Source: Candidatus Eiseniibacteriota bacterium
GTDB taxonomy: Bacteria; Joyebacterota; Joyebacteria; Joyebacterales; Joyebacteraceae
Assembly: GCA_030622115.1 (NCBI GenBank)
Contig: JAUXGN010000003.1
Span: 35,465 to 99,464, forward strand
Direction of reading: 5' to 3'
DNA length: 64,000 bases
Positions 24,190 to 51,720 of the stretch are shown here, in pieces (position 1 is the first letter of the stretch; the number at the start of each line of letters is the position of its first letter). The position numbers and the translations under genes are program-made. The notes beneath the pieces were generated by a model. That model was not told the DNA's origin. It ran no database searches and was given only the letters and a program-made list of their open reading frames with translations.

Positions 24190-24464
24190 CACTTCCTCCT
24201 TCACCGCTTGTGTTTTCGGTTCGAGCGCCTCAGGGACAAGAACGGGATCGAAGCGCATTGTCGTACGCCCGATCCCGGTGCAAGTCACGCGGATACAAAC
24301 AGAGAAACATTACCGCGCTCAGAGCTACCGTTGGGCATCGCTTTCACGATGCGTCAGATCATCAATGTCGGCTCTTTCAGGACGGTAGCAGTGTGGTGAG
24401 CGGTGTTTCTCCCCTGATGCAGCTGCCGGATGCGAATGCCAGCTTGATTGTTTCTATTGAAGAT

Positions 24465-28079: not shown

Positions 28080-28130
28080 CTGCATCCTCCTTGAGCCGAC
28101 AATAACAACCATAACTACAACTATTACCAT

Positions 28131-28348: not shown

Positions 28349-29584
28349 CTATCTATAGAAGGACTTGATCGTGCCCCAACTCGAGCGCTCGACCGGGATC
28401 TCAGTCTCCATGAGCCATGTGTCATCAAGCATGATGCCTGCGCCGCCCGCGGTCCCGGGCCCGCAGCCGTTGTCCGTGGTGTTGAAGGTCAACTTGAACT
28501 GGAAGAACGTCCCCGGCAGGAGATCCGTGATATCGATGCCGTCGAGACCGTGCGCGGACCACCCGTCACACTGCCCGAAATCGCCCCACCAGGCTCCGAC
28601 CTGGTTCCAGACTACCCCTCCGTCGACTGTCACCGACTCCGTGTAGTAGTCGTTGTCCACCTGCGGTACCTCGGCGTGGAGGGCAAAGAAGAGAGTACAG
28701 GCCGACGCGGGGGTGAGACCGGAGATATCCACCTGCGGTGAGATGAGGGAATTGGAGAGATCTGGTGGGATGAGACTGGTATCTGCGTCATCTCCACACC
28801 ACCAGCTGGTCGGGTCACTGTATGCCGGGCACGCACGTGTGATCTGGTGCCAGTAGTCGCCTGATGACGCGGGGACTGCTGGAGTGCAGAGCCCGCCCGA
28901 TTCCACGTCGTCCAGGAAGTAGACGGCGCCGCCGTAGAAATCGAAGATCGTCACGTTGTCTACCATATAGGCGCCTCCGACCGAGTCGTAGTCGCCATCC
29001 TCATCGGAATAGGCGCCGTCCGATACGAAGCGGAAGCGAGCTTCTACAGGATTGTCAGCCACATTGAGCACGAAGCCGTACGCACCTAAGTCGACCCAGG
29101 TGCCGCCGCTGATCAGGCCGCAGTACCCGGCGTTCTGCGCTGTGAAAACCCCGCCGATTTTCACATCGACATACGTGAAATCATAATCCTGCTCGCTGTC
29201 GTAGTAATGCACGAATGTGAGAATGGGATAGTAGGCGGTGCTCACATCCGTCGTCGGGATGATGAGAAGGTCGGTCCATGTGTTGCCGTAGCCGCCATTG
29301 GTGTCGTATGCGAAGTTACCACACCACCAGTGGTTCGTGTCGTAGGCCATGTACGTGTCAACATGGAAATGCGGAGTGGCGACAGCCGTCTCATCCACAG
29401 TCGTCCATCCGTTGGTTCCACTTTCCATGTCGTCGAACCAGAGCATGGCGGGCCGGGGGCCGAGGTCGGAATAGTCGGCGACCGACGCCTGCTGTCTGGC
29501 TGGGAGGATGGGGGAAAACAGTACGACTGCCGCGAGGGCTACGAGAACAGTCCTTGCAGTCATGATAGGACCTCCTTTGCGCAT
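28349..29584 (-). CDS. secreted Cys/Trp-rich protein of an unrecognised family with an internally duplicated module (paralog A)
   Basis: 411 aa; signal peptide; 'WWCG' appears twice (HWWCGNFAYD / SWWCGDDADT) with aromatic-rich beta-strand periodicity; no HEXXH; conserved C-terminus 'PVERSSWGTIKSFYR'; alternative start at 29563. Confidence 0.6.
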   Translation of the reverse strand: MRKGGPIMTARTVLVALAAVVLFSPILPARQQASVADYSDLGPRPAMLWFDDMESGTNGWTTVDETAVATPHFHVDTYMAYDTNHWWCGNFAYDTNGGYGNTWTDLLIIPTTDVSTAYYPILTFVHYYDSEQDYDFTYVDVKIGGVFTAQNAGYCGLISGGTWVDLGAYGFVLNVADNPVEARFRFVSDGAYSDEDGDYDSVGGAYMVDNVTIFDFYGGAVYFLDDVESGGLCTPAVPASSGDYWHQITRACPAYSDPTSWWCGDDADTSLIPPDLSNSLISPQVDISGLTPASACTLFFALHAEVPQVDNDYYTESVTVDGGVVWNQVGAWWGDFGQCDGWSAHGLDGIDITDLLPGTFFQFKLTFNTTDNGCGPGTAGGAGIMLDDTWLMETEIPVERSSWGTIKSFYR

Positions 29585-29692: not shown

Positions 29693-30952
29693 TCATCGAT
29701 ACAGCGCCTTGATCCTACCCCAGCTCTTGCGCTCAACCGGAACATCCGTTGTCTCAAGCCAGATGTCGTCGAGCGCAATCCCGGCTCCTCCCGCGACCCC
29801 CGGTCCGCATCCGTTCGATGTCGTGAAGAAGCGGATCATGAACTTGAATGATGTCCCAGGGAAGAGATGCGTAATGCCGTGTCCGGTAACGCCCGCGTTT
29901 CCCCAACCGTCGCACGACTCGAAGTCACCCCAGTACGCTCCCAACTGATACCACGATGCTCCATCATCTACCGATGCGTAGACGCTCCAGTAGTCGTTAT
30001 CCACGGTTGGCACTTCGGCGTGCAGCATGTAGCGCAGCGTGCAGGCGACCGAGCGATCGAGGCCGCTCAAGTCGACCGCCGGTGACTCCAGACGATTGTC
30101 CAGGTTGGGCGGGATGTGGCCGGTATCGGCGTCGTCTCCGCACCACCAGCTGCATGGATCGCTGTAGGCGGCGCACCGCCTGTCAGTGATGTGCCAGTAG
30201 TCTCCCACGGCCGGACGCACGCTGGGATTGCAGAGACCTCCGTTCTCGACATCGTCGAGAAAGTACGTCTCACCGCCGTAGTAGTCGAAGACCTTGATGT
30301 TATCAACGTGGTACGCGCCGCCGATCGAGTCGAAGCCACCGTCTTCATCTGAGATCGTGCCGTCCGAGAGAAAGCGGAAGCGAAGCTCCAGCGGGTGGTC
30401 GTATCCCTCGACAACGTATCCGTAGACACCGAAGTCCTGCCAGGAACCACCGGGTATCAGACCGCAGTAGCCCGGGTTCAGATCTGTGAATTCACCCCCG
30501 TCCTTCACTTGCACGTAGGTGAAATCGGAGCCCGGCTCGGAGTGGTAGTAGTGCGCGAATGTGAGTATCGGGTAGTCGGCGCCGGACACGTCGATGAGAG
30601 GTAGCTCAAGGCGATCGTCCCACTGGTCTCCGTATCCACCGTCCGAGTCGAAATCGAACGAACCGCACCACCATGAGCGTTCGCCCTCAAAGGCCATGTA
30701 GGTGTTCACATGAAAGTGCGGCGCTACGCCCCACGTGTTGTCTCGGTGATTCCAGCCGGCTTCGCCGCTCTCCATGTCGTCGTACCAGATAACGGTGCCC
30801 CGCGTCCTCGGGGATCGGAATGCGCGTGTGTCCATCTCGGGAGTTGCTCTGCCGTACGTGGGAAACACGAGAACCAGCGTGACGATCAGGAGAAGGCCGA
30901 CGAGATTTCTCATGTGAGTACGCCGCATCTGCGGGGATTTCGATCCGGACAT
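29693..30952 (-). CDS. secreted Cys/Trp-rich protein (paralog B, ~60% identical to 28349..29584)
   Basis: 419 aa; AAGGAGAG SD; same module order and Cys positions; C-terminus 'PVERKSWGRIKALYR'. Confidence 0.6.
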   Translation of the reverse strand: MSGSKSPQMRRTHMRNLVGLLLIVTLVLVFPTYGRATPEMDTRAFRSPRTRGTVIWYDDMESGEAGWNHRDNTWGVAPHFHVNTYMAFEGERSWWCGSFDFDSDGGYGDQWDDRLELPLIDVSGADYPILTFAHYYHSEPGSDFTYVQVKDGGEFTDLNPGYCGLIPGGSWQDFGVYGYVVEGYDHPLELRFRFLSDGTISDEDGGFDSIGGAYHVDNIKVFDYYGGETYFLDDVENGGLCNPSVRPAVGDYWHITDRRCAAYSDPCSWWCGDDADTGHIPPNLDNRLESPAVDLSGLDRSVACTLRYMLHAEVPTVDNDYWSVYASVDDGASWYQLGAYWGDFESCDGWGNAGVTGHGITHLFPGTSFKFMIRFFTTSNGCGPGVAGGAGIALDDIWLETTDVPVERKSWGRIKALYR

Positions 30953-31097
30953 GGTACTCTCCTTGGCGCAGATCGTAGGATCAGCGTGTCCGGTCTTGGG
31001 GAGGCTACGGGAAGTCTGGCAGCAGCTTCATTCTTCCTTCTGTGGGCAACCGTTGTCAATGAATATACTCCTCACGCATCCCGATACAAGCACAGGC

Positions 31098-31126
31098 TTG
31101 ACAGACACGTCTCTTAGACCTAAGAA
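31098..31126 (+). promoter_or_regulatory. possible promoter for the CsgG-like gene (consensus -35 TTGACA, 17 bp, weak -10 TAAGAA)
   Basis: Hexamers read from the sequence in the divergent intergenic region. Confidence 0.3.
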
Positions 31127-31211
31127 TACAGCTGTGGTTGATTCAATACTCTTGCGGACTCCGGACTGCTGAAGGGTGTCGGGGGGACGTGCCAATGTGG
31201 AGGGTGTGTTG

Positions 31212-32147
31212 ATGAAGACAAGAAGAACGGCTCTGTGGACCATTCTGGTCATGTTCCTGGTGGTGGCTGCTGTCTCACCGCCCGCGGGAGCGAAGAAGGA
31301 CGAGGCGCCGGCGGGTCTCAAGAAGATGATCGCGGTCGTCGAGTTCGAGGACAAGAGCGACCGCAGCCGCTGGAACTGGACCGGTCCCAATCCTGGTCGC
31401 GGGATGTCCGACATGCTTGTGACCGCGCTTGTTCAGTCCGGCGCGTTCAGTGTGATGGAGCGTGAGCAGCTGGATCATGTCCTTGCCGAGCAGAACCTCG
31501 GACAGTCGGGGATGGTCACGGCCCAGACCGCGCCTCAGTTGGGAAAACTCCTCGGTGTTGCAGCCATCGTCTACGGCTCGGTGTCCGAGTTTGGCTACAT
31601 GGCATCCGATACCGGCGGCAGCATTCCCGGGTTGGGCGGCGGCGGATTTTCGAAGACGACGGCGCGCGTCTCCATCGACGTCCGTCTGATAGACACGACG
31701 ACGGCGGAGATCATCCTGGCCGAGACCGCATCGGACGAGAAAACGCAGATGGGACTCAAGCTCAGAACGCAGGATTTCTCCTTCGGGCACGACGGCAAAT
31801 TCGATCAGACGCTTGTGGGCAAGGCCACGCGTGAGGCGATCGAGGATCTGGTCGAGAGCATAGTTGAGGCACTCGAAGATGTCCCCTGGACCGGGCGGAT
31901 CATCAAGGCCTCCGGTGGGAAGATCTACCTCAACGCCGGACAGAGTATCGGCATCACGTCAGGGATGAGATTCAACGTCTACAGGATGGGGGAGGCTCTG
32001 ATCGATCCGGTCACAGGATTGGATCTGGGAGCTGAGGAGGAGTTGCTCGGCGTCATTGAGGCGTCCGATATCAAGGAGAAGTACTCCATCTGTTCGCTCG
32101 TCAGTGGTTCGGGACTCGATGCCGGAGACATGGTTCGCTACGAGTAG
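31212..32147 (+). CDS. CsgG-family (curli production assembly/transport component-like) secreted or lipoprotein
   Basis: ATG at 31212 (the in-frame GTG at 31176 is also possible); 'KKMIAVVEFEDKS…GRGMSDMLVTALVQSGAFSVMEREQL' matches the CsgG N-terminal core. Confidence 0.65.
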   Translation: MKTRRTALWTILVMFLVVAAVSPPAGAKKDEAPAGLKKMIAVVEFEDKSDRSRWNWTGPNPGRGMSDMLVTALVQSGAFSVMEREQLDHVLAEQNLGQSGMVTAQTAPQLGKLLGVAAIVYGSVSEFGYMASDTGGSIPGLGGGGFSKTTARVSIDVRLIDTTTAEIILAETASDEKTQMGLKLRTQDFSFGHDGKFDQTLVGKATREAIEDLVESIVEALEDVPWTGRIIKASGGKIYLNAGQSIGITSGMRFNVYRMGEALIDPVTGLDLGAEEELLGVIEASDIKEKYSICSLVSGSGLDAGDMVRYE

Positions 32148-32166
32148 CATCCAGCGAGGAGATAGG

Positions 32167-33378
32167 ATGAACAGAGAGACAATCGTGATAGTGCTGGCCG
32201 GAGGCAAGGGGAAGCGACTCTGGCCGCTGACGCGAGACCGCGCCAAGCCTGCCGTGCCGTTTGGCGGCATCTATCGCATCATCGACTTCAGTCTCTCTAA
32301 CTGCATCAATTCGGGCCTCAAACGGATCTTCGTGCTGACGCAGTACAAGTCGCGGTCGCTCGCGCTGCACCTGAGACAGGGGTGGGGATTCCTCAGCCAC
32401 TGGGTGGGTGAGTTTATTGAGAGCGTGCCCGCGCAGCAGCGCCTCGGTGAGGATTGGTACCGAGGCACCGCCGATGCGATATGGCAGAATGTACATCTAC
32501 TCGATCGCGCCGGACCGCGGTTCACACTCATTCTATCGGGCGACCATATCTACGCGATGAACTACAACTCGATCCTCGCTTTCCACGCGGCGTCCGGAGG
32601 CGACGTGACAATCTGCGTGCAGGAGCGCAGCATCGATGACGCGTCCGGTCTCGGGATAGTCGAGGTAGATGAGCGGATGATCGTGCGCGGCTTTCAAGAG
32701 AAGCCCGATCATCCGACGACGATGCCGGGCGCTCCCGATCGCGTGTTGGCCTCGATGGGAATCTACGTGTTCAAGACCGACGCCATGGTAGAGATCCTCG
32801 AGTCAGTGATCGCAGACGGGAAATACGACTTCGGTCACGACGTGATCCCGAGGATGGTGGAGCAGGGAGCGGACGTGAGGGTGTTCGTGTTCAGGGATGG
32901 GGATGAACCCGGCTACTGGCGCGACATCGGGACAACGGACGCCTACTGGGCGGCCAACATGGATCTTGTGGAGATCATTCCTCAGCTGAATCTGTACGAC
33001 ACGAACTGGCCGATTCACACGTACCAGGGAGGACATCCTCCAGCGAAGTTTGTGTTCGCCGGAGGCGGAGGTGGGGGGAGGATGGGCGCTGCCGTGGACT
33101 CCATCGTTTCCACCGGCGCAATAATCTCTGGCGGCAGGATCCAGCGTTGCGTTCTCTCGCCCGGCGTGAGAACGAACAGCCACAGCTATGTGTTCGAGTC
33201 CATTCTCATGGAGGATGTCGACGTTGGGCGCTACGCGAAGCTCCGCCGCGTCATTGTCGACAAGGGCGTGCGGATTCCCCCCAAGACGCAGATCGGCTAT
33301 GATTCCGAAGAGGACGCGGAACGCTTCACAACAACCGAGAGCGGCATAGTTGTCATCCCGAAGGAGTTCCGATTCTGA
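32167..33378 (+). CDS. glgC: glucose-1-phosphate adenylyltransferase
   Basis: 'VLAGGKGKRLWPLTRDRAKPAVPFGGIYRIIDFSLSNCINSG…VLTQYKSRSL' is the canonical GlgC N-terminus; the six-frame ORF 32056.. carries a spurious upstream extension. Confidence 0.9.
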   Translation: MNRETIVIVLAGGKGKRLWPLTRDRAKPAVPFGGIYRIIDFSLSNCINSGLKRIFVLTQYKSRSLALHLRQGWGFLSHWVGEFIESVPAQQRLGEDWYRGTADAIWQNVHLLDRAGPRFTLILSGDHIYAMNYNSILAFHAASGGDVTICVQERSIDDASGLGIVEVDERMIVRGFQEKPDHPTTMPGAPDRVLASMGIYVFKTDAMVEILESVIADGKYDFGHDVIPRMVEQGADVRVFVFRDGDEPGYWRDIGTTDAYWAANMDLVEIIPQLNLYDTNWPIHTYQGGHPPAKFVFAGGGGGGRMGAAVDSIVSTGAIISGGRIQRCVLSPGVRTNSHSYVFESILMEDVDVGRYAKLRRVIVDKGVRIPPKTQIGYDSEEDAERFTTTESGIVVIPKEFRF

Positions 33379-33425
33379 AAGGATGAGGTCGCACCGGACG
33401 CCCCCCCCGAGAGGTTCGCTGCTCC

Positions 33426-34163
33426 GTGGACCGACAGCATCCGCAGAAGACGCAGGCGTGGAGTCGGCGGAACGCCGAGTACCGGCGCGGTGTACTGATT
33501 GCCGTGGGCCTGTCGGTTGCGGTGCACGTCCTTCTTTCGCTGGCGCTGGCGCCGTTCAGGGATAGGATACCGGTTGTTCGCCACATAGGTTACTACGGAC
33601 CGACGCGCATCCTTCCTGAGATATCGATAGAGCGAGCAACGGCTAATCTGGAGTCCAGGGTTCGTCCGACGATCGGACGCGGAGCGACCAACGCCTTTCA
33701 TATAGTCCCGATCACGATCACCGACTGGGCCGTGCCGAGTGACGAGGCCGATGAGGCCGAGTCGAACGATGTGGCCGATGACGCGAGTGCCGGCGATAAC
33801 CTGCTCGCAGAGCTTGAGATGTCGTTGCCGCAGCCCCAGAGCCGGGACATGGTCGTCCTGCACCTTGTGACTCCTGAGTATCCTGTTTCATCCACGACAG
33901 CGGGCGTCGAGGGAGTTGTCGTCTTCCGTCTGCATGTGACGAAGACGGGGGAGGTGGTGAACGCGTGGCTGCTGCGGTCGGAAGTCGACCGCGCCTGCGA
34001 GCGCGCTGCACTCAGAGCTCTTCGTCGCTGGCGCTATCGTCCCTGTATCGTGGACGGCGAACCTGTGAGCTTCCTCGGTGATCAGGCCGTCCGCTTCCGA
34101 CTCCTTGACCCCTTCGAAGATGGCGCTGCGGAGTCTCGCGCGGACGTGCCCGGCCGGAGGTAG
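33426..34163 (+). CDS. tonB: TonB-family energy transducer
   Basis: GTG start; N-terminal TM anchor; C-terminal TonB_C fold 'PEYPVSSTTAGVEGVVVFRLHVTKTGEVVNAWLLRS…ALRALRRWRYRP'. Confidence 0.7.
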   Translation: MDRQHPQKTQAWSRRNAEYRRGVLIAVGLSVAVHVLLSLALAPFRDRIPVVRHIGYYGPTRILPEISIERATANLESRVRPTIGRGATNAFHIVPITITDWAVPSDEADEAESNDVADDASAGDNLLAELEMSLPQPQSRDMVVLHLVTPEYPVSSTTAGVEGVVVFRLHVTKTGEVVNAWLLRSEVDRACERAALRALRRWRYRPCIVDGEPVSFLGDQAVRFRLLDPFEDGAAESRADVPGRR

Positions 34164-34268
34164 CACTGCACCTTGACATTGCAGTGTGTGGTGGCGGACA
34201 CTCGTGGGGCAATGCCGCGTGCTAGCGTGCGATGGTTCCAACTCAAGGCCAGGACGAAAGGATCTCCG

Positions 34269-36188
34269 ATGCACCGATCCGGGACGATGATTTTCATTGC
34301 TGTCCTAATGCCCGTCCTGCTTGCGGCGGCTCCCGTGTCCGGTGCGTCCGACGACGCCCCGCGTGGCGGGGACGCGGAGTTCGTGTTCGTGGAAGAGGTC
34401 GCAACCGGCGATCGGTGCGTCGGGCTGTCTGTCTTCCAGGGAACGGAGATCGAGGAATTCGAACTCGAGATCATCGGTGTGGTCCGAGGTGTGTCGCCGG
34501 GGAGCGATCTCATTCTTGCTCGGGCAGAAGGCGAGCTGCTTGAGAAGACCGGTATCATGCACGGTATGAGCGGCAGTCCCGTCTACAAGGACGGCCGCCT
34601 GATCGGAGCGATCGCCTCCGCGTGGTCATTCTGCAAGGATCCGATAGCTGGGATCACTCCCATCAAGGAGATGCTTCGCGCGTATGACATGCTGGACGAG
34701 ATGCCCACCTCGGCGGGCGCGCCCGGGGGCGCGGCCGGTCCCGCGTTCGATCAGATAACCGGCGGAGAGGTGTGGGGATCGCGCGTAGCATGGGTATCGA
34801 GGGCGGCGGGAATTGGAACCGGCGGCGCTTCTGAACAACTCCAGTGGTCGTCAACCGCTCGCATCCCCGAAGCCACACTGAGGGGGATCAGTGCTCCCGC
34901 CGATGGCTCGGAACTGACGCCACTCAGCGTGCCTCTCTTCGTGTCGGGCGCCGAACCTCGTTTCCTGGACGGTGCTCGCGGGGTTCTGTCGGGGCTGTCT
35001 CTGACTCCTGTTGCTGGAGGGATGTCGGCAAGCGGGTCTGCGTCAGGGGAAGCAGCGGCGCTTCTCCCCGGGGCTTCAGTCGGTGTCCAGTTTGTGCGCG
35101 GCGACGTCAACATGACGGCTGTCGGAACGGTGACGCATCGCGATGGCGATCGCATCCTCGCGTTCGGGCATCCAATGTTCCACGCCGGACCGGTCGAACT
35201 CCCAATGGTCGGAGCCTTCGTGCATACCACGATGCCCATGCTCTCGTCATCGCACAAGTTCGCCTCCGGGACCGAGCTTGTGGGCACGTTCTATCAGGAC
35301 CGAAGCAGGATGGTGGCCGGTCGACTGGGCCGTGCGCCCAAGATGCTGCCGCTCGCGGTCGCGGTTCACTCACCGACAGGCGGTGTGCGCGAATTCGGAT
35401 TCGAGGTGCTGCGTTCTCCCACCTACACATCACTCTTCTCAAGCCTGGCAGTGGCCGGCGCCATCTCCGAGGTTACGAAGTCGGCGGGTCCGGCGGATGT
35501 CGTGTTGCGAATACGCCTCGTTATGGATGAGGGTGAGATTAGCTATGGCAATCGTTTCTTCAGCGAGATGCCAACGTTTCGAAGTGCGGGCGAACTTGCT
35601 ACGCTCATGGATATCATGCTTCTGAACGAGTTCGAGAACCATGAAATCGAGCGCATCGAACTGGAAGTTGAACTCGACGAGACCCGGCGACGGGCCGCCA
35701 TCGTGCGGATCAGCACCGACAGAAGTACCTACGCTCCCGGGGACGTCGTCAGGGTCAACGTCGTCCTTCGCAACTGGCAATCAGGGCTCACGGAGCGAAC
35801 GATCGAGCTCCCCCTCCCGGAATCTGAACAAGAAGGTCAGATCTTCCTCTGGGTTGGCGGAGCGGAGGAGTATCACGAATTGGAATCGGGCAGGCTGGGC
35901 GATGGGCTTGTGCCGCGAAGCTACGGCCAGCTCATCGATCTGATAGCTCGATCTCGCTCCGAAGACACCGTCGTTGCCCAGCTTCTTTCCCTGAGACCAG
36001 GCCTCTCCCTTTCGGGAGACGAGCTTCGAAGCCTACCAGGAAGGGCGGCATTGGCCATGGCGTCCGTTGCATCGAGCGGGGCCGCGGTTCGCACCGAGAT
36101 GACAGTGCTCGCACAGGATGAGTTCACATATGACCGGTCTGTGATCGGATCGCACCAAATCCAGTTGACAGTCAGAACGGATCGATAA
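34269..36188 (+). CDS. secreted serine peptidase with an S55 (SpoIVB-like) / trypsin-fold catalytic motif and a large C-terminal extension
   Basis: Start at 'MHRSGTMIFIAVLMPVLLAAAPVSG' with an AAAGGA SD; 'GIMHGMSGSPVYKDGRLIGAI' resembles the SpoIVB catalytic-Ser block (GMSGSP). Confidence 0.5.
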   Translation: MHRSGTMIFIAVLMPVLLAAAPVSGASDDAPRGGDAEFVFVEEVATGDRCVGLSVFQGTEIEEFELEIIGVVRGVSPGSDLILARAEGELLEKTGIMHGMSGSPVYKDGRLIGAIASAWSFCKDPIAGITPIKEMLRAYDMLDEMPTSAGAPGGAAGPAFDQITGGEVWGSRVAWVSRAAGIGTGGASEQLQWSSTARIPEATLRGISAPADGSELTPLSVPLFVSGAEPRFLDGARGVLSGLSLTPVAGGMSASGSASGEAAALLPGASVGVQFVRGDVNMTAVGTVTHRDGDRILAFGHPMFHAGPVELPMVGAFVHTTMPMLSSSHKFASGTELVGTFYQDRSRMVAGRLGRAPKMLPLAVAVHSPTGGVREFGFEVLRSPTYTSLFSSLAVAGAISEVTKSAGPADVVLRIRLVMDEGEISYGNRFFSEMPTFRSAGELATLMDIMLLNEFENHEIERIELEVELDETRRRAAIVRISTDRSTYAPGDVVRVNVVLRNWQSGLTERTIELPLPESEQEGQIFLWVGGAEEYHELESGRLGDGLVPRSYGQLIDLIARSRSEDTVVAQLLSLRPGLSLSGDELRSLPGRAALAMASVASSGAAVRTEMTVLAQDEFTYDRSVIGSHQIQLTVRTDR

Positions 36189-36197
36189 GGAGGGATA

Positions 36198-38270
36198 ATG
36201 CCTCGATCGCCCAGAACGAGATTCCCGATAGTGCTGATCACGATCCTGTTCGTGACCCTCACGGGTTCAGCCGGAGCTGTTTCGACATCGTACTGGCTCA
36301 CGGACGAGTATCGGGAATTCCTTGACGGAGCGCCGACCGGCGTCTCCCTTCTGGAAGCCGGGCGTCTGGTTTTGGGACCGGCTCCTGAGAGAATCGAGAT
36401 TCCGGAAGTGCAGTATGTGTGGGGTGCGGTCGAGGGGCGCGACGGAGTGATGCACATAGTCACGGGAACACCAGGCAGGCTGTACCGGATCAAGCGGGGT
36501 GACTTCGAACTCCTTATCGAGATGGAAACGCAGGATCTGCCGGCGATCGCGGCCGGACCGGATGGAACCATCTACGTAGGGACATCGCCCGGTGGAGAGG
36601 TCTACCGGGTTCGTGTGGATGAGGATCCTGAGCTGCTCTGCGAGACGGGAGACGGGTATATCTGGAGCATGGTCTGGTCCGAAGCGCATGGTCTTCTCGT
36701 CGGTACAGGGGAGATGGCCAGGGTGGTGGCGGTCGATTCCAGGGGACGGATGGAGGTCATCTACGAGTCGAGCGATCTCAACATCGTTGTGCTCGCTACG
36801 ATCGGTGACAGAGTTCTCGCAGGAACCAGTGGGGACGGTCTCTTGCTCGACGTTACGCCGGGCCAAAGGGTCAGTGTTGTCTATGACTCGCCGTACGATG
36901 AGATCTCCGGTGTTGTGTCGTCAAGCGATGGCGCTCTCTACTTCTCTGCGACCAGCGTTGATCTGAATGGGATGCTTGATGAGTTCGCAGGTTCGGAGCT
37001 TCCGATCGGTAACGGTTCCGTCTACAGGGTGAGTGGTGGAGGGGCGATCGAAATATGGCATTCCGCGGACGCGCCAGTCGTCTCACTGGCGGCCGGGCCG
37101 GATGGGGCCATTTGGGCGGGGACCGGCGCCGGCGGCCGCGTGTTCTCTGTCAGGCCGAGCGAGGCAGGTTTGATGGTCGATCTCGATGAGGAGGAAATCC
37201 TGGCAATGGCCGCGACTCCTGATGGGATCGTCTTCACCACCGGTACTCCAGGATCCGTCTACAAGGTTCGCGAGGGGACGTTGGAGTCGGGAAGGTATGA
37301 ATCCGACGTGCTCGATGCGGCGACGTCGGCTTCCTGGGGGAGCTTGAGCATCAGAGCGGAGGAATGGGGTGGTCGTCTCACTGTCGGTACTCGCTCGGGC
37401 AATGTTATGGAACCCGACGACACATGGAGCGACTGGATCGATCTTGTCGACGGCTCGATTGTGAGCCCTGGGGCTCGCTTTCTTCAGTGGGCAGTCGAGT
37501 TCGATCGCGGTCGGGGTTCAGGGCCGATCGTGCACGCTGTTGAGATAGCTTTCCTTCGGGAGAACGTGGCGCCCGAGATCCTGCGTGTGAATGTCTATCC
37601 GGCCGGGCGTGGTTTCTCCGATCGTGAGAACTCCGCGGGTAGTGCGAGCCAGACTCTGTCTTCCGGGGTCGATGTCACATATTCCATCAACGCCTCAGAG
37701 CACTCCGCTCTGGGCGCGCCGCCGGTGGTGAGAGGACTCAGAACGGCGGAGTGGGATGTCATGGATATGAATGGAGACATCCTGTCATTCGACGTCTATG
37801 TGAAGAGCGAGAGCGATGAGGAATGGGGTCTGATGGAGGAAGGGCTTGAACGAACCCTCCATACGTGGGACTCCGTTTCGATGCCGGATGGGGATTATCG
37901 AATCCGGGTTCTGGCCACAGATGCACCGGACAACCGTGCGGATCTCGCTGCCACCGCAGAGGCCGTGAGTCCCATTTTCACCGTGGACAACAGTCCGCCG
38001 AGTGTGGATGGCATCGAGCTCAGGCGCAACGGGAGAGCGATTGTCATCGGCGCGAGCATCAGGGATGCTCTGAGTCCGGTAGTCGGAGTGGAGGTGTCGA
38101 TCGATTACGGGGAGTGGATGCCGGCGTTTCCTGTCGATGGGATGTTCGATTCGCGTGCCGAAGCGGCAACGTTCAGATTTGAGGATCTGGCGCAGGGGCG
38201 GCACGCTGTGGCGGTCAGGGCGGCCGACCGGGCGGGAAACATAGGTGTGGCGCGGATTGCCGTGAACTAG
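36198..38270 (+). CDS. secreted beta-propeller protein with C-terminal Ig-like domains, uncharacterised; 10 nt downstream of the S55-like gene
   Basis: Strong AAGGAGGG SD; signal peptide; repeated 'GPDGxIYVGT…GGxVYRV' blades. Confidence 0.5.
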   Translation: MPRSPRTRFPIVLITILFVTLTGSAGAVSTSYWLTDEYREFLDGAPTGVSLLEAGRLVLGPAPERIEIPEVQYVWGAVEGRDGVMHIVTGTPGRLYRIKRGDFELLIEMETQDLPAIAAGPDGTIYVGTSPGGEVYRVRVDEDPELLCETGDGYIWSMVWSEAHGLLVGTGEMARVVAVDSRGRMEVIYESSDLNIVVLATIGDRVLAGTSGDGLLLDVTPGQRVSVVYDSPYDEISGVVSSSDGALYFSATSVDLNGMLDEFAGSELPIGNGSVYRVSGGGAIEIWHSADAPVVSLAAGPDGAIWAGTGAGGRVFSVRPSEAGLMVDLDEEEILAMAATPDGIVFTTGTPGSVYKVREGTLESGRYESDVLDAATSASWGSLSIRAEEWGGRLTVGTRSGNVMEPDDTWSDWIDLVDGSIVSPGARFLQWAVEFDRGRGSGPIVHAVEIAFLRENVAPEILRVNVYPAGRGFSDRENSAGSASQTLSSGVDVTYSINASEHSALGAPPVVRGLRTAEWDVMDMNGDILSFDVYVKSESDEEWGLMEEGLERTLHTWDSVSMPDGDYRIRVLATDAPDNRADLAATAEAVSPIFTVDNSPPSVDGIELRRNGRAIVIGASIRDALSPVVGVEVSIDYGEWMPAFPVDGMFDSRAEAATFRFEDLAQGRHAVAVRAADRAGNIGVARIAVN

Positions 38271-38368
38271 ATTTCTCACACGAGACCGAAACCCTGGGAG
38301 TGGATCCGGTGTCGAAGTAGTGGGCGAGTTGTGCCCGCATCCGTCGTATTCGAATCAGGAGACCGTCA

Positions 38369-38959
38369 GTGGATTGCCGGAAAGCAGAAGCGCTCATTCA
38401 GATGGAACTCGATCGTGCTCTGGCGGGCGATGATGATCGCTTCAGCACGACTGTGGATTCCTCGGAGATGGCGCTTCTGGACGACCACATTGGTGGATGT
38501 CCCCGATGCGCAGCGCTCAGGCGTGGGTTCGTTGCGATCGATGCGGCCTTGAGAAGCGCTCCGATCGAGAAGGCCCCAGTGTGGCTGGCCGCCGCCGTCA
38601 TGTCCGAGATCGCAGAGACGTCAACTGCTCGACGGTTCACCGTCCCGCTCGGTCTCTACACAACGGTGGCCGTTGGAGTGGCGGGGGCCGTTCTCGTTCT
38701 CGTTCGATCCGGAACGGGGCAGGTGGCAGGGCGAGCGCTGGGTGTACTCTCCAACGCTCTGTCGTCGCTTCTTGGATCTGCTCAAGATGCCATCACGAGT
38801 TCGGCCGGCTTCCAGACTGCGCAGGCGTCCCAGATGGGTGATGTCGCTTTTGGGATTCTCTGTGGACTCGTCGCTGTTTCGGTTGCCTCCATTGCCATCT
38901 TGGGTCTCAGGACAGCGCGCGAACTGACCCACGAGCTGCAGCCGATCTCCCTTCACTAG
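38369..38959 (+). CDS. zf-HC2 anti-sigma factor (membrane-spanning)
   Basis: GTG start with an AGGAGA SD; N-terminal 'C…A…LDDHIGGCPRCAALRR' H-x3-C-x2-C zinc-finger pattern followed by TM segments. Confidence 0.55.
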   Translation: MDCRKAEALIQMELDRALAGDDDRFSTTVDSSEMALLDDHIGGCPRCAALRRGFVAIDAALRSAPIEKAPVWLAAAVMSEIAETSTARRFTVPLGLYTTVAVGVAGAVLVLVRSGTGQVAGRALGVLSNALSSLLGSAQDAITSSAGFQTAQASQMGDVAFGILCGLVAVSVASIAILGLRTARELTHELQPISLH

Positions 38960-39136
38960 CGCAAGCAACCTCAAGACAATGCTAACTACCCAGACGTCCA
39001 GGTCCGCGAGATCCGCACCCACGTGTCGAGCGGGATCGAATGCGAGCCTCGAGGCGTATGCGAGGACGCGTGTGGGCGAGCTGAAACTCGGATGGGTATC
39101 TTGTGTGGATGATGGGTTTCAGGTCGGACGGGGAGG

Positions 39137-39189
39137 CGTTGGCCGATCTCGTGCCGCGTCTCACTCTACGCAGACGGGATCGGCCAACG
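39137..39189. repeat. 12-bp perfect inverted repeat (CGTTGGCCGATC-N29-GATCGGCCAACG) in the convergent intergenic region
   Basis: Read directly from the sequence. Confidence 0.6.
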
Positions 39190-39200
39190 TCGGCGAAAAT

Positions 39201-39632
39201 CTACTGATCCTGATTCGTGTCGCCGTCCGTCCGTCCGGCGCCGGGCACGAGCTGGACGGGCTTGCCGTTCTTCTCGATATCGACGGCATTCCGCTTCACG
39301 ATCACGTGGAAGATGATGAGACCGATTCCGAGAAAGAGCGGGACGAGGGCGCCGATGGCGGCATCATTCCATATGCCGAGAGTAATGAAGCCGATGACCT
39401 GGGCGATGCCGATTGCGAGAAGAGCGATGCCCCATCCGAGCGCCGCGTTGCCGCCGGGTCTCTTCTCTGGACGAATAATCGTCGGATCGTAGATACCCTT
39501 CTGGAGAGCCAGTTCGAACGACTCCTTGCGTGTCCGGTCCCCGTTCATGAATCCTTTGACAATCAGCATTACTATGAGCACTGCGGACCCGATGCTGACC
39601 AGGGCGGTCATGAAGCCAAAGAACATACTCAT
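39201..39632 (-). CDS. small integral membrane protein (4 TM), uncharacterised
   Basis: Start 'MSMFFGFMTAL…' with an AAGGGAGAG SD; hydrophobic throughout. Confidence 0.45.
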   Translation of the reverse strand: MSMFFGFMTALVSIGSAVLIVMLIVKGFMNGDRTRKESFELALQKGIYDPTIIRPEKRPGGNAALGWGIALLAIGIAQVIGFITLGIWNDAAIGALVPLFLGIGLIIFHVIVKRNAVDIEKNGKPVQLVPGAGRTDGDTNQDQ

Positions 39633-39993
39633 TGTGGATCTCTCCCTTCTCTGCCCAGGCCGCACCGCCGATGTTTCCGATTCTCCAGATCCACTGGCAC
39701 GACGGCCGCTGAGCTGCCCGTTTTCACCTCTATTATCGTTCTGTTCATTTTCTTTGACATCGATCCGCCGGAGTATGTTTCAGCTGATACAGCCCTCCCG
39801 GGAGCAGGCACCGGTCATCATGGCCGATACGACAGTATGTCAGGAGAGACAGTCCGGTTCAGCGATGCTTGGAGTATGAAACAGTTTGGATCAGGAAGGG
39901 GTTCTGGTACCATTACACGCTGGTCCCGGGGGACGGGTTTTCGTCTGCCCGACCGCAGCACTGCAGAGCTGGGCGCGCAGACGCGGAGGGCCA

Positions 39994-40587
39994 ATGGCTA
40001 GATCGGATTCTCCGCGCACCCACATATCGACGGACGACCAGCTGGTGGCGAAGGTCCAGGCCGGCGACCAGAGCGCGTACGCTGTTCTGGTCGAGCGCTA
40101 CTCGGACTTCGTGTTCACGATCGCGGTGAGGATCATAGGTGATGAGGATGACGCGGCCGACATCGCTCAGGAGACGTTCGTTCGCGCCTACAAGGCGATA
40201 GGCCGATTCAGAGGCGACTCGAAATTCTCGAGTTGGCTCTATCGAATAGCGGCCAATCGGGCGCTCACGCACCTCAAGCGCAAGAAGCGACGCCCCCAGA
40301 CGGTGGACATCGATCTCGGGGCTCACATCGAGGCGGATGCGCTGACGAGCGGCAATCGCGATGACCCCGGTCAGCAAGTGCTTGACGATGAGTTCCGTCG
40401 GGCCATGCGCGACGCTGTGTCCAAGCTACCGGAGCAGTACCGAACAGTCATAGCGCTCTTCTATCTCGAAGAGAGGAGTTACAAGGAAGTCGCCGAGACG
40501 CTCGGCATTCCGATGGGAACACTCAAGACTCATCTTCATCGGGGCCGGGCGATGTTGAGAGAGGTTCTTAAGGAACGAGGATTCTGA
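39994..40587 (+). CDS. ECF-subfamily RNA polymerase sigma-70 factor
   Basis: Region 2 'DAADIAQETFVRAYKAIGRFRGDSKFSSWLYRIAANRAL' and region 4 'SYKEVAETLGIPMGTLKTHLHRGR'. Confidence 0.85.
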   Translation: MARSDSPRTHISTDDQLVAKVQAGDQSAYAVLVERYSDFVFTIAVRIIGDEDDAADIAQETFVRAYKAIGRFRGDSKFSSWLYRIAANRALTHLKRKKRRPQTVDIDLGAHIEADALTSGNRDDPGQQVLDDEFRRAMRDAVSKLPEQYRTVIALFYLEERSYKEVAETLGIPMGTLKTHLHRGRAMLREVLKERGF

Positions 40588-40602
40588 GAGCGGGAGGAAA
40601 GA

Positions 40603-41418
40603 GTGAGCGAGAGCAGTCTGGATTTCCTGTTCGACAGGAGGAGTATCCTTCATTTCAAGGATGAGGAGATTCCTCAGGATGTTCTGAACAAGGTGCTTGT
40701 GGCTGCACAGCGGGCATCGGCGCCGGGTGGGACTCTGACCGGCGGTTACCGCGGGGCACAGCCAATCTCCATCATCGTAGTTAAGAACAAGGCTCGCAGA
40801 GCTCAGTTGAACGAGATGCTGTGTGAAGGACGGAAGGTCTGCATTCAGGAGGCGCCGGTCTCTCTGATCTTCTGTGTCGACACGCATCGCCTGAACAGGT
40901 GGGCCGCCCTTGATGGTGGAGAGTCTCATTTTGGCGGCATGGGCGTTCTGTGGGTATCCCTGCGGGCGGTCTACACGGCTGCTCAGAACTCCGTCATCGC
41001 AGCTGAGGCCATGGGGCTTGGATCGCAGTACATCCAGGAGATCGTTTGGCAGCCGCATACGGCGCTGGACTTCTTCGAGCTTCCAAAGCAGGTGATGCCG
41101 GTCACGATGCTTGTTCTGGGCTATCCATCCGAGCGACCACCGCTTGCTCCAACGCTTCCTCTTGAGGCGATCGTGCATGAGGAGACCTATCACGATCCCC
41201 CTGACGAGGAGCTGCTCGCCCACTACGCCGACAAGGAAGCCTACTATCAGGATTGGATCAGCAACCTTCCGGAGGACTCGAAGCTCAGGAAGCACATCAA
41301 GAAGCAGGGCGTGGAGACACTGGCTCAGTTCGTCTCGCAAGTCACGTACACCGAGAGCTTCTACAGGTGGCGGGACGACATGATCAAGATCAACCTCGCT
41401 GTGTCCGAACTGGAGTAG
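40603..41418 (+). CDS. nitroreductase-family protein
   Basis: 271 aa; 'RRSILHFKDEEIPQDVLNKVLVAAQRASAPGG' FMN-binding N-terminal block and the overall nitroreductase fold pattern. Confidence 0.65.
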   Translation: MSESSLDFLFDRRSILHFKDEEIPQDVLNKVLVAAQRASAPGGTLTGGYRGAQPISIIVVKNKARRAQLNEMLCEGRKVCIQEAPVSLIFCVDTHRLNRWAALDGGESHFGGMGVLWVSLRAVYTAAQNSVIAAEAMGLGSQYIQEIVWQPHTALDFFELPKQVMPVTMLVLGYPSERPPLAPTLPLEAIVHEETYHDPPDEELLAHYADKEAYYQDWISNLPEDSKLRKHIKKQGVETLAQFVSQVTYTESFYRWRDDMIKINLAVSELE

Positions 41419-41480
41419 TTTGCGTGCTGACCAGGGTAGACCACGCGGGTTCGAGCACACCGGGGGAGAGAGATACACTC

Positions 41481-41516
41481 AAGGGGACGTGGCAGATCGG
41501 TCTGTAGCGTCCCCTT
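41481..41516 (+). terminator. weak candidate terminator hairpin (AAGGGGACG-N18-CGTCCCCTT) after the nitroreductase gene
   Basis: Inverted repeat read from the sequence; poor U-tract. Confidence 0.25.
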
Positions 41517-44886: not shown

Positions 44887-46833
44887 ATGGAGACAGATAT
44901 GAGCGACAAACGACGTCTGGGAGCAGATGCATACGGCGGCTGCAAGGGAGAGGACTACAAACCCTACACGGGGCACGCGGTCACCATCCCTGAGTTTACG
45001 CTCCGGTCCGTACTCACCGGCGCTCTGATCGGCATTGTGTTCGGCGCCGCCAACGCCTATCTCGGTCTCAAGGTCGGCATGACGGTGTCGGCGTCCATTC
45101 CGGCAGCCGTCATTGCCATTGCGCTGAGCCGGTTCTTCCGCTCACGGCCTACGGTGCTTGAGAACAACATGGTTCAGACCGTGGGTTCTGCCGGCGAGTC
45201 CCTGGCAGCAGGTATTATTTTCACGATCCCGGCGCTCATAGTACTCGGCTTCATGCCGGAGCTCTCGAAGATCTTCGCGCTGGCGGTCGTGGGAGGACTT
45301 CTGGGCGTGCTCTTCATGATCCCGCTTCGTCGTCACCTGATGATAGGTGAACATGGGAAGCTGCCGTTTCCCGAGGGCACAGCGTGTGCGGAGGTGCTCG
45401 TCGCCGGTGACGCGGGAGGTTCGCGTGTCTCCCGGATTCTGGCGGGATTGGGCGTCGGTGCGCTGTACAAGTTCCTGATGGAGGGCCTGCACCTTTGGCC
45501 TGATCGTCCCGTCTGGAATATTCGTGGAGTCGAGGGTGCTCAGGTGGGCGGTGAGGTGACGCCCGCGCTTCTGGGCGTTGGATACGTTATCGGCCCGCGC
45601 ATCTCAGGCATAATGCTCGCCGGTGGAGCCGTCGCGTGGCTCGTACTCATTCCGATCATCAAGATGGTGGGAAACGGTCTGGCCGAGCCGCTCTATCCCG
45701 CGAGTGTTCCCATAGCGGAGATGGGTCCGGGCGAGATCTGGGACAACTACATACGCTACATCGGGGCGGGAGCCGTCGCGTTCGGCGGGCTTGTCACGCT
45801 CATCAAAGCGATACCCACGATGGTCAGTTCGTTCGGCGCGGGTTTCAAGGAGCTGCTGGGGCGTTCGGGTGGAGTGACCGAGGCCGTGAGGACTGCGCGC
45901 GATCTTCCAACGAAGCTCGTGTTGTGGGGAGCCGTGCTCCTGGGGATCGTGGCTTGGCTTCTGCCCGCGATACCGGTCAATGCGATAGGTGCATTGCTCA
46001 TAGTGGTCTTCAGCTTCTTCTTTGTAACCGTATCCTCCCGGATCGTCGGTCTCGTCGGCTCCAGCTCAAACCCCGCGTCGGGTATGACCATAGCGACGCT
46101 CCTGGCCACCAGCCTCATCTTCCTCGGCATGGGGTGGACGGGGAAGGCGGGCATGATCGGGGCCATTTCCATAGGGGCCGTCGTATGTATCGCGATCTGC
46201 ATCGCCTCAGACACGTCGCAGGATCTGAAGACCGGTTTCCTGATTGGAGCGACGCCTCGACGGCAGCAGATTGGGGAGGTCATCGGTGTGCTGAGTTCGG
46301 CGCTCGCGATCGGCTGGGTTGTCTTCTTCCTGCACCGCGCATACGGGATCGGATCGGAGAGGCTCCCGGCCCCGCAGGCCGTACTCATGTCCATGGTCGT
46401 CAAGGGCGTGCTCACTCAATCACTTCCTTGGACGCTCGTTTTCATAGGAGCGTTCATGGCCGCGTGCGTTGAGCTTCTCGGCATTCCATCTCTACCTTTC
46501 GCTGTGGGGCTCTATCTTCCGCTCAGGCTCTCAACGCCCATCATGACAGGGGGACTCGTGAGACATATCGTGGAGCGTACGCGTGACCCCGAGAGGCGGC
46601 ATGCCCGACGCGAGCACGGTGTCCTCTTCAGCTCGGGGCTCATTGCGGGCGGCGCCCTGATGGGTATCGGTGTGGCTGCACTGGTCAATGCGGGGCTTGA
46701 TAAGCACATCAGGATCGGGTACGGCTGGGCCGGGGGCGCCTCCGGACTCGTTGCCGCACTTCTCTTTGGTCTCCTGACGCTGTCACTCCATCTGTCCGCA
46801 AATGGACGGGCGAGCGAGACATCTGACGACTAG
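44887..46833 (+). CDS. OPT-family oligopeptide transporter
   Basis: 648 aa, ~16 TM; N-terminal 'IPEFTLRSVLTGALIGIVFGAANAYLGLKVGMTVSASIPAAVI' is the OPT signature; alternative start at 44899 carrying a GGAGA SD. Confidence 0.8.
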   Translation: METDMSDKRRLGADAYGGCKGEDYKPYTGHAVTIPEFTLRSVLTGALIGIVFGAANAYLGLKVGMTVSASIPAAVIAIALSRFFRSRPTVLENNMVQTVGSAGESLAAGIIFTIPALIVLGFMPELSKIFALAVVGGLLGVLFMIPLRRHLMIGEHGKLPFPEGTACAEVLVAGDAGGSRVSRILAGLGVGALYKFLMEGLHLWPDRPVWNIRGVEGAQVGGEVTPALLGVGYVIGPRISGIMLAGGAVAWLVLIPIIKMVGNGLAEPLYPASVPIAEMGPGEIWDNYIRYIGAGAVAFGGLVTLIKAIPTMVSSFGAGFKELLGRSGGVTEAVRTARDLPTKLVLWGAVLLGIVAWLLPAIPVNAIGALLIVVFSFFFVTVSSRIVGLVGSSSNPASGMTIATLLATSLIFLGMGWTGKAGMIGAISIGAVVCIAICIASDTSQDLKTGFLIGATPRRQQIGEVIGVLSSALAIGWVVFFLHRAYGIGSERLPAPQAVLMSMVVKGVLTQSLPWTLVFIGAFMAACVELLGIPSLPFAVGLYLPLRLSTPIMTGGLVRHIVERTRDPERRHARREHGVLFSSGLIAGGALMGIGVAALVNAGLDKHIRIGYGWAGGASGLVAALLFGLLTLSLHLSANGRASETSDD

Positions 46834-47020: not shown

Positions 47021-47338
47021 TTGAGACTCATCCTCAAGTACTCGAACAGGCGTCTCTACGACACGCATCAGGGAAAGGTCATCACCCTTCTTGAACTGTC
47101 CGAGCTGGTGCTCGCCGGCGAGGACATCCACGTTGAGCGGAAGGGTACGGGCGAGGATATCTCGGCCGTCACGATGATCCACGCGATCCTGGAATACGTG
47201 AGACGCAATCCGGATGATGAAGCCAGGGCAGATCTGGCCGAGCGAGTGCTTCACGCGCTTCGTGGATCGTTCGAGGACGATGATAGGGCCACCCGCGGCG
47301 CGACTGAGAGCGAGAAGACGAGAGTCGGGGCGATATGA
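47021..47338 (+). CDS. PhaR-like DNA-binding protein (PHA/PHB accumulation-regulator DNA-binding domain)
   Basis: TTG start with an AGGAG SD 5 nt upstream; 'ILKYSNRRLYDTHQGKVITLLELSELV' matches the PhaR N-terminal 'KKYPNRRLYDT' signature. Confidence 0.6.
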   Translation: MRLILKYSNRRLYDTHQGKVITLLELSELVLAGEDIHVERKGTGEDISAVTMIHAILEYVRRNPDDEARADLAERVLHALRGSFEDDDRATRGATESEKTRVGAI

Positions 47339-51671: not shown

Positions 51672-51720
51672 GCAGTTCGAAGTCCTTTCTCTTCGCCGAT
51701 TGGGTGAAAGGAGCAGATAC

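Follow-up and report, generated by a model that had tools for sequence, protein, structure and literature searches.

The serine peptidase SpoIVB of Bacillus subtilis (family S55; Pfam PF05580; PDB entry 9lnf) is the signaling protease of a regulated intramembrane proteolysis (RIP) pathway (PMC6581720, PMC12502668). Its catalytic histidine precedes the catalytic serine in the chain (H236 ... S378), and its presumed aspartate, Asp363, lies 24 Å from His236 (PMC12502668). S55 has so far been treated as a sporulation-specific family. We analyzed a 64,000-nucleotide (nt) stretch of DNA (the window) from a Candidatus Eiseniibacteriota bacterium (contig JAUXGN010000003.1, positions 35,465 to 99,464), in which a gene for an S55-like secreted serine protease (34269-36188, forward strand; 639 amino acids, aa) is followed by a gene for a secreted beta-propeller protein with C-terminal immunoglobulin (Ig)-like domains (36198-38270, forward strand; 690 aa). 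Unlike the host of SpoIVB, the host of this protease is a diderm outside the endospore-forming Firmicutes, and no sporulation genes were found among the window open reading frames (ORFs) scanned. Comparative analysis provided strong evidence that the protease and the propeller protein make up the conserved unit of this locus and are likely to act together.

Proteases with a repeat-domain partner that delivers or gates substrates are known from other systems, including Prc-NlpI, CtpA-LbcA, tricorn, and prolyl oligopeptidase. By analogy, the pair described here may resemble Prc-NlpI, CtpA-LbcA, and tricorn in having a dedicated repeat-domain partner, sometimes within one polypeptide. The folds are different, however, being S41 or S9 in those systems as opposed to PA clan and S55 here. 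Furthermore, the adaptors in Prc-NlpI and CtpA-LbcA are TPR lipoproteins, whereas the putative partner in the window is a soluble propeller with Ig-like domains.

An earlier annotation of this DNA, made from the letters alone (the original prediction), had read the locus as a regulated-proteolysis cascade. In that scheme, the protease, accompanied by a propeller partner, would act at site 1 on a membrane-anchored zf-HC2 anti-sigma factor encoded beside the two and, through it, on a nearby extracytoplasmic function (ECF) sigma factor. All four genes were found where they had been placed, on the forward strand.

The protease and its relation to SpoIVB

PF05580 was the sole significant Pfam family of the protease (46.3 bits, cut-off 25; E = 6.6e-12), and matches to it are precomputed in nearly all of its homologues. 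In a sequence search of the PDB, SpoIVB (9lnf) was the only meaningful match, with an E value of 2.9e-6 for the single sequence and 8.9e-10 for the profile. When the protease family profile was aligned by hhalign to a profile of 90 SpoIVB homologues, the two matched with 98.9% probability (E = 1.8e-17) over 84 columns. These columns include the GMSGSP block of the protease, which aligns with GMSGAP of SpoIVB and places Ser101 on S378. SpoIVB was also the top structural match in Foldseek (probability 1.00), with DegS, AlgW, MucD, and DegP among the other structural matches. The PF05580 match was limited to profile positions 114 to 202 of 210, which correspond to the Ser-bearing barrel. In this half of the catalytic domain, the protease is related to S55/SpoIVB at a level far beyond chance. 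The original prediction had proposed such a relationship and had named a better fit to a generic trypsin or DegP family as the result that would overturn it; the only significant Pfam family was S55 and the top structural match was SpoIVB, so the assignment stands. The S55 domain match is itself already known, since NCBI calls some members of the family "SpoIVB peptidase S55 domain-containing protein."

Despite this likeness, the window protease fails three features that define SpoIVB. First, the order of the catalytic residues is different, with H236 followed by S378 in SpoIVB and S101 followed by H301 in the window protease. Second, nearly all of the full-length SpoIVB homologues that we retrieved carry a PDZ domain, whereas the window protease had no PDZ-family Pfam match at E ≤ 0.1. 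Third, the protease scored 41.3 bits with TIGR02860, the SpoIVB equivalog model, which is below the cut-off of 305.25. In comparison with SpoIVB, the protease also has approximately 125 residues inserted between the barrels and approximately 280 extra residues at the C terminus, and it has a propeller partner, which SpoIVB does not.

We mapped these differences onto an AlphaFold2 model of the full-length protease (predicted template modeling score, pTM, 0.81). The chain begins with a signal peptide (34269-34346, forward strand; approximately residues 1 to 26) that is hydrophobic at residues 5 to 23 and would be cleaved after VSGA; the predicted local distance difference test score (pLDDT) is below 50 at residues 1 to 33. 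Approximately 13 residues separate the signal peptide from the Ser-bearing beta-barrel (34386-34676, forward strand; residues 40 to 136), which is homologous to the C-terminal barrel of SpoIVB. DSSP strands in this barrel cover residues 49-55, 61-76, 79-87, 104-107, 110-118, and 126-131, so that region 49-131 has the strand order of a C-terminal barrel, with the serine between b9 and b10. The GMSGSP block (34563-34580, forward strand; residues 99 to 104) contains the predicted nucleophile, Ser101 (nt 34569-34571). A second beta-barrel follows (35064-35336, forward strand; residues 266 to 356) and contains His301 (35169-35171), Asp344 (35298-35300), and Asp279. The remainder of the protein, a beta-sandwich followed by helical domains (35337-36185, forward strand; residues 357 to 639), has no SpoIVB counterpart and is modeled with a pLDDT mostly above 85. 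These C-terminal domains gave only subthreshold matches to Arrestin_C and MG2, at residues 478 to 515. No protease family was matched in a Pfam scan of residues 266 to 367 and of the C-terminal 285 residues (E ≤ 10).

The residues of both barrels are strongly conserved in an alignment of 194 members of the protease family, which spans approximately 30% identity. In the GMSGSP block, G99, M100, S101, G102, and P104 are invariant (194/194), and S103 is present in all but one member (193/194), which has S103T. The second barrel contains an invariant G286-T-x-T289 and an AFGHP block in which G300 and H301 are invariant, with F299 in 190 and P302 in 189 of the 194 members. D344 is present in every member, and D279 in 193. 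His301, which lies approximately 200 residues C-terminal of Ser101, is the only invariant histidine of the protease. From this pattern we infer that Ser101, His301, and Asp344 would support catalytic activity.

Three lines of evidence bear on the order of the two barrels. First, no His-bearing barrel can precede the Ser barrel, because the spacer after the signal peptide is so short and because the ORF could be extended upstream by at most 32 codons before reaching the stop codon of the preceding TonB_C gene. Second, DSSP assigned strands 270-278, 282-292, and 295-298, then His301, then strands 309-322 and 329-343, then Asp344, and finally strand 349-353, giving the order b1-b2-b3-His-b4-b5-Asp-b6. 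This is the strand order of the N-terminal barrel of chymotrypsin. Third, a hidden Markov model of the region aligned "GTvThrd..gdrvlAFGHP" to SpoIVB with the histidine on H236, a score that was equaled in 16 of 3,000 shuffles (p ~0.005). An hhalign comparison limited to the N-terminal barrel of SpoIVB likewise gave a weak, collinear alignment of 72 columns with H301 on H236 (E = 0.015). The profile alignments weakly suggest that His301 is equivalent to H236 of SpoIVB. Taken together with the lack of room before the serine and the modeled strand order, they point to a swapped barrel order, that is, to a putative circular permutation of the PA-clan fold relative to SpoIVB. Two other comparisons were set aside. 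When the His barrel was aligned by hhalign against the whole SpoIVB domain, the alignment picked was spurious, and a PDB profile search with the His-barrel alignment returned only noise (e.g., papillomavirus L1). If the swapped order were confirmed, the protease would, to the extent covered by our searches, represent a chymotrypsin fold that has been circularly permuted in nature, and it would be useful for understanding how that fold assembles and evolves.

The second barrel also touches on the catalytic triad of SpoIVB. In a weak hhalign alignment covering family residues 339 to 354, Asp344 falls on Asn290 of SpoIVB (9lnf), and the Bacillaceae homologues likewise have Asn at this position of their consensus. 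SpoIVB may thus lack an Asp that the protease family retains, which fits the 24-Å separation of Asp363 and His236 (PMC12502668). The invariant Asp344 may help with the triad question raised by the 2025 crystal structure.

The protease and propeller as a gene pair

The stop codon of the protease gene (TAA, 36186-36188) is overlapped by a ribosome-binding site, AGGAGGG, and the ATG of the propeller gene lies 9 nt further on, so that the propeller gene is apparently translationally coupled to the protease gene. A profile built from 22 propeller homologues matched PQQ- and WD40-type propellers as well as designed propellers over approximately residues 70 to 345, with E values down to 3e-55. Among these 22 family members, Pfam identified Reg_prop in 16 and Big_13 in 7. 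The Reg_prop family takes its name from sensor domains of the periplasm. A hydrophobic signal-type segment was found at the N terminus of both the propeller protein and the protease. On the strength of the propeller profile matches, the Reg_prop domains, and this signal segment, the description of the partner as a secreted beta-propeller held up. The propeller protein has no lipobox, and Pfam placed no Por_Secre_tail or FlgD_ig sorting domain on either protein. A Y_Y_Y domain, as in hybrid two-component sensors, had been suspected by eye after the propeller; it had no Pfam support in any of the 22 members and was rejected.

We then compared gene neighborhoods in 87 loci plus the window; lineage groups, 21 in all, were defined by ≥45% protease identity. 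Both ORFs were called in 47 loci, and in every one of them the propeller gene lies directly downstream of the protease gene on the same strand (median gap, 12 nt). The two genes are adjacent in 18 of the 21 lineage groups, across many phyla, and the identity steps within the propeller family parallel those of the protease family. In four distant loci (L001 to L004), the pair is kept without any sigma factor. Three distant contigs (31 to 35% identity), including one from Abyssubacteria, retain the pair but no other part of the window neighborhood. The gene directly upstream of the protease, TonB_C, was considered as a further member of the unit and rejected, since it holds this position in the window clade only; in two other loci (L010 and L011) it is distant and on the opposite strand. 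In the Abyssubacteria locus L001, a different signaling gene, encoding Response_reg and HisKA domains (12040-12756, forward strand), shares 4 nt with the 3' end of the propeller gene.

In some genomes, the two proteins are fused into single polypeptides of 1,366 to 1,457 aa, with the S55-like part first and the propeller part second. Residues 719 to 1327 of one such protein (P0492) align to residues 33 to 681 of the window propeller (E = 5e-53), and another (P0495) is similar; two more (P0496, 1,450 aa, and P0503, 1,378 aa) are fusion-like by length alone. Several independent contigs, the longest of 202 kb, carry such fusions, and contigs of Armatimonadota/Capsulimonadaceae are among them; there is no sigma factor near the gene for P0492. 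It is this combination of gene fusion and operon conservation that argues for proteins acting together.

The family is large. At E ≤ 1e-3, the protease has 6,327 representatives in a library clustered at 50% identity, and 1,966 remain at E ≤ 1e-30. In a set of species-representative genomes, at least 587 stretches match the protease family. Judging by record titles, carriers include Eisenbacteria, many classes of Acidobacteriota, Gemmatimonadota (including a metagenome-assembled genome of Gemmatimonas phototrophica, L061), Latescibacterota, Zixibacteria, WOR-3, Dormiibacterota, Planctomycetota (Kuenenia, an anammox bacterium), and Poribacteria, with Armatimonadota added through the fusions. 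A further carrier is a metagenome-assembled genome assigned to Luteitalea sp. (P0113). As a two-gene unit, the pair is kept widely among uncultured bacteria of soils and sediments. The protease family has no detectable link to sporulation and is kept across many poorly studied phyla. Half of the S55 catalytic domain is thereby found in a much larger family than the sporulation proteins in which S55 has been described. In the searchable literature, we found no account of this family without a PDZ domain, of the apparently swapped architecture, of its propeller partner, or of the fusions. We also found nothing relevant there on PDZ-less or nonsporulating S55 proteins or on permuted chymotrypsin folds. 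The pair is a clear target for work on envelope proteolysis, or envelope-stress signaling, in the Acidobacteriota and Gemmatimonadota, two phyla for which pathways of this kind have hardly been described.

Sigma factor neighbors and explanations of the locus

We consider it fairly likely that the two-gene operon encodes a periplasmic, or otherwise secreted, protease-partner module. Under this explanation, the first gene would encode a PA-clan serine protease that shares its ancestry with SpoIVB (S55), with the Ser barrel first and the His/Asp barrel later, that has lost, or never had, a PDZ domain. The propeller/Ig protein would bind this protease and recruit, sense, or gate its substrates in place of the PDZ domain of SpoIVB and DegS. 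Both proteins are presumably periplasmic. The zf-HC2 anti-sigma factor, a DUF6249 protein, and the RpoE-like ECF sigma factor would then form a separate envelope-stress module next door.

The genes of that neighboring module follow the propeller gene. The first encodes an anti-sigma factor of the zinc-associated (ZAS, zf-HC2) type (38369-38959, forward strand; 196 aa), with an H40-x3-C44-x2-C47 motif that is invariant in four orthologues. It has two transmembrane segments (residues 94-112 and 159-177) separated by a poorly conserved outside loop of approximately 46 aa. Pfam zf-HC2 matched the window protein with 18.9 bits, under the cut-off of 22.2, and orthologues in L005 and L006 carry the match. 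The HxxxCxxC motif and the paired transmembrane segments bear out its earlier description as a membrane-anchored anti-sigma factor. A single gene on the opposite strand, encoding a DUF6249 membrane protein (39201-39665, reverse strand; PF19762, 37 bits), lies between it and the ECF sigma gene (39994-40587, forward strand; 197 aa; Sigma70_r2, 75.5 bits; Sigma70_r4_2, 63.4 bits). The best NCBIfam models of this sigma factor were SigW, PRK11922, and RpoE, all under their equivalog cut-offs. The DUF6249 gene is kept at its position in L005, L006, L007, and L009.

We identified promoter-like elements around these genes, with their functions read from phylogenetic conservation alone. Upstream of the protease operon, a non-ECF element, TTGACA-N17-GACACT (34173-34202, forward strand; TTGACA, 17 nt, GGACACT in the window), is shared by the window, L005, L006, and L007 and stands out from intergenic DNA that has otherwise diverged. 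The anti-sigma gene is preceded by an ECF-type motif, GAAAC-N17-TGTC (38288-38313, forward strand), in 6/6 loci (the window and L005 to L009), and the same motif precedes the DUF6249 gene (39756-39781, reverse strand) in the four loci examined. The protease operon thus appears to be transcribed from its own, non-ECF promoter, and the anti-sigma gene, because it has its own predicted promoter motif, is a transcription unit apart from that operon. Because the ECF-type motif is conserved before the anti-sigma gene, the nearby ECF sigma factor is probably the cognate partner of the anti-sigma factor, as the original prediction had it. The footprints outline a small ECF regulon of which DUF6249 is a probable member, and its product may be the main local output of the sigma factor. 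The ECF sigma gene of the window showed no sign of autoregulation. A sigma-70-type element lies before it instead (TTGGAT, 16 nt, TG-n-TACCAT; 39886-39913, forward strand), visible as a footprint kept as TTGGAT ... TGnTAnnAT in the window, L005, L006, and L007.

A second clade, the Vicinamibacteria, has its own version of the neighborhood. There, an ECF sigma gene adjoins the pair in 12 of 14 loci, and two loci, L020 and L081, that fell outside the clustering are arranged alike. The sigma-to-anti-sigma operon, of canonical type, converges on the propeller gene, and in L063 the two share 4 nt at the 3' end of that gene. The ECF sigma factors of the window and the Vicinamibacteria are 35% identical and both RpoE/SigW-like, and HxxxCxxC is the only thing their anti-sigma factors detectably have in common. 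In L063 (14126-15579, reverse strand), as in L078, L081, and L024, the anti-sigma factor has 274 aa and one transmembrane region, with approximately 145 residues beyond it. The sigma operon of this clade is predicted to be autoregulated from a classic sigma-E-type element (GGAACTT-N16-GTCTAA), and its protease operon is preceded by a sigma-70-type element, TTGACC-N17-TATAAt. In neither clade was an ECF-type motif found ahead of the protease operon. This promoter type is compatible with an independent module and also with a constitutively expressed sensor protease.

Several observations weigh against a self-contained protease-propeller module. The RpoE-like sigma/anti-sigma pair immediately adjoins the protease-propeller pair in two separate clades, and no other ECF sigma was found in 1.41 Mb of related loci, even with E. 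coli RpoE as the probe. Because of that low background, the two juxtapositions exceed what would be expected (p ~0.005 to 0.02 by a rough estimate that assumes independent events and involves no formal test), which hints that the pair is not fully independent of sigma signaling. In a Pyrinomonadaceae subgroup (L013, L025, L070, and others), moreover, the protease occurs without an adjacent propeller, and its neighbors are PPDK-like or TPR genes and, on the opposite strand, gidB (confirmed in L070). The idea that a diverged propeller lies downstream of the protease in these genomes was rejected, given that those genes are found there instead. Finally, complex formation between the protease and the propeller protein is read from gene order and fusions only.

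The sigma factor juxtapositions could potentially reflect a pathway in which the protease and its propeller sensor act at site 1, clipping the adjacent ZAS anti-sigma factor, starting RIP, and freeing the ECF sigma factor, much as DegS cuts RseA or PrsW cuts RsiW. SpoIVB is itself a RIP signaling protease (PMC6581720, PMC12502668), and the anti-sigma gene is the immediate neighbor of the propeller gene in both clades, co-directional in the window clade and convergent in the Vicinamibacteria (12/14 loci). At the background density of ECF sigma genes, two such juxtapositions would be unlikely. The two sigma factors are both RpoE-like, with similar motifs (G(G/A)AAC ... GTC(t/a)a), and the Reg_prop repeats of the propeller belong to a family named for sensors of the periplasm. 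The non-ECF promoter-like element of the protease operon in both clades suggests constitutive expression, as for DegS. A site-1 protease may also be encoded away from its sigma gene, as degS is from rpoE in E. coli.

Against this, neither a sigma nor an anti-sigma gene is found near the protease in at least 17 further lineage groups or at L088, which encodes a fusion; adjacency is limited to the window clade and the Vicinamibacteria, which make up 3 of the 21 lineage groups. In the window clade, adjacency carries little information. Protease identities there are 38 to 50% (L005 to L009), and the whole block of approximately 20 kb is syntenic, housekeeping genes included (C25, CsgG, GlgC, TonB_C, protease, propeller, zf-HC2, DUF6249 on the reverse strand, ECF, nitroreductase, DUF401, and EamA). 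A common recognition site is not evident in anti-sigma factors that share HxxxCxxC only, the window anti-sigma factor exposes only its short, poorly conserved loop, and no M50 site-2 protease gene was found among the window ORFs scanned.

The locus can also be compared with described site-1 pathways. The likeness of the protease to the HtrA-type site-1 proteases of the sigma-E pathways DegS/RseA/RseP and AlgW/MucA is at the level of the PA clan only. Like them, it would act on the outer face of the inner membrane, and their sensor PDZ domain is missing here, possibly replaced by the propeller. In common with the DegS, AlgW, and PrsW pathways, there is an RpoE-like ECF sigma factor with a membrane anti-sigma factor, although it adjoins the protease-propeller pair in two clades only. 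In place of a periplasmic domain, the window anti-sigma factor offers a short loop between its two transmembrane segments. Apparently constitutive expression would be common to DegS and the window protease, and most lineages of the protease family show no linkage to a sigma factor.

Overall, we regard site-1 cleavage of the anti-sigma factor as possible but unlikely. The original prediction is supported in part, in what it said of the S55 relationship, the secreted propeller, the membrane-anchored anti-sigma factor, and the nearby ECF sigma factor as its probable partner. It had overlooked the apparently swapped barrels and the lack of a PDZ domain. The cascade as it was stated is not supported: the conserved unit is the protease and the propeller, the sigma pair adjoins it in two clades only and in different arrangements, the anti-sigma factors are alike in HxxxCxxC alone, and the window anti-sigma gene has its own promoter and a loop that is poorly conserved. 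It is also doubtful that, more generally, a permuted, PDZ-less SpoIVB relative with a propeller sensor serves as the site-1 protease of RpoE-like anti-sigma factors in nonproteobacterial diderms. If it did, SpoIVB sporulation signaling would descend from an ancient envelope-signaling protease.

It is improbable that the pair is instead an extracellular or surface protease with a nutritional role, in which the propeller and Ig domains bind the substrate or the surface. The window is rich in secreted peptidases (two C25, M3, S9, and DUF3160) and encodes an OPT transporter, and both proteins of the pair carry signal peptides. However, neither has the Por_Secre_tail or FlgD_ig domain that would mark it for sorting, and fixed pairing across phyla with diverse lifestyles, including Kuenenia, is more typical of envelope housekeeping or signaling.

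We find it highly improbable that the protease performs envelope quality control as a member of an ECF (sigma-E-like) regulon, like mucD or htrA. Genes for PA-clan proteases are known to lie next to those of envelope-stress sigma factors, as with mucD of Pseudomonas (algU-mucABCD) and htrA of Mycobacterium (sigE-rseA). The structural matches of the window protease include MucD, AlgW, DegS, and DegP, and an RpoE-like sigma factor is adjacent in two clades. MucD and HtrA, however, have PDZ domains and are encoded in, or co-regulated with, the sigma operon, whereas the window protease has no PDZ domain and its operon has its own predicted non-ECF promoter. The ECF-type motifs precede the anti-sigma and DUF6249 genes in the window clade and the sigma operon in the Vicinamibacteria. 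In both clades they do not precede the protease operon, which argues against membership in such a regulon. Least credible of all is a catalytically dead protease fold with the pair serving a purely structural or binding role, given that Ser101, His301, Asp344, and the GMSGSP and AFGHP blocks are fixed across the 194 members in a pattern of selection on catalysis.

Other genes of the window

The original prediction had described the host as an organism of the type IX secretion system (T9SS) type, which is reasonable, since the window encodes two giant C25 (gingipain-like) peptidases with FlgD_ig/Por_Secre_tail domains. These peptidases (19471-24288, 1,605 aa, and 24675-28130, 1,151 aa; both on the reverse strand) carry the domains at their C termini, which is a mark of T9SS-type cargo. 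A propeptide and FG-GAP/fn3 repeats were found in the 1,605-aa peptidase only. Homologues of the C25 peptidases hold the same position in L005 to L007. Between the C25 and CsgG genes lie two reverse-strand ORFs encoding proteins of 411 aa (28349-29584) and 419 aa (29693-30952) without a Pfam family. Pfam-less ORFs of 404 to 420 aa occur at the same place in L005 to L007, with a likeness that is one of position and length only.

No Rfam match was found in 31000-41500, and a generic scan of the locus for promoters and terminators gave nothing informative. Genes of peptide metabolism surround the locus (1293-3404, 6407-8911, 44887-46833, and 51655-53670) and encode an M3 oligopeptidase, an S9 prolyl-oligopeptidase-family protein, an OPT oligopeptide transporter, and a DUF3160 protein. 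Lastly, a single forward-strand ORF of 761 aa (47335-49620) encodes an MFS transporter (MFS_1/MFS_3) fused to a Lip_A_acyltrans domain, an acyltransferase of the lipid A biosynthesis type.

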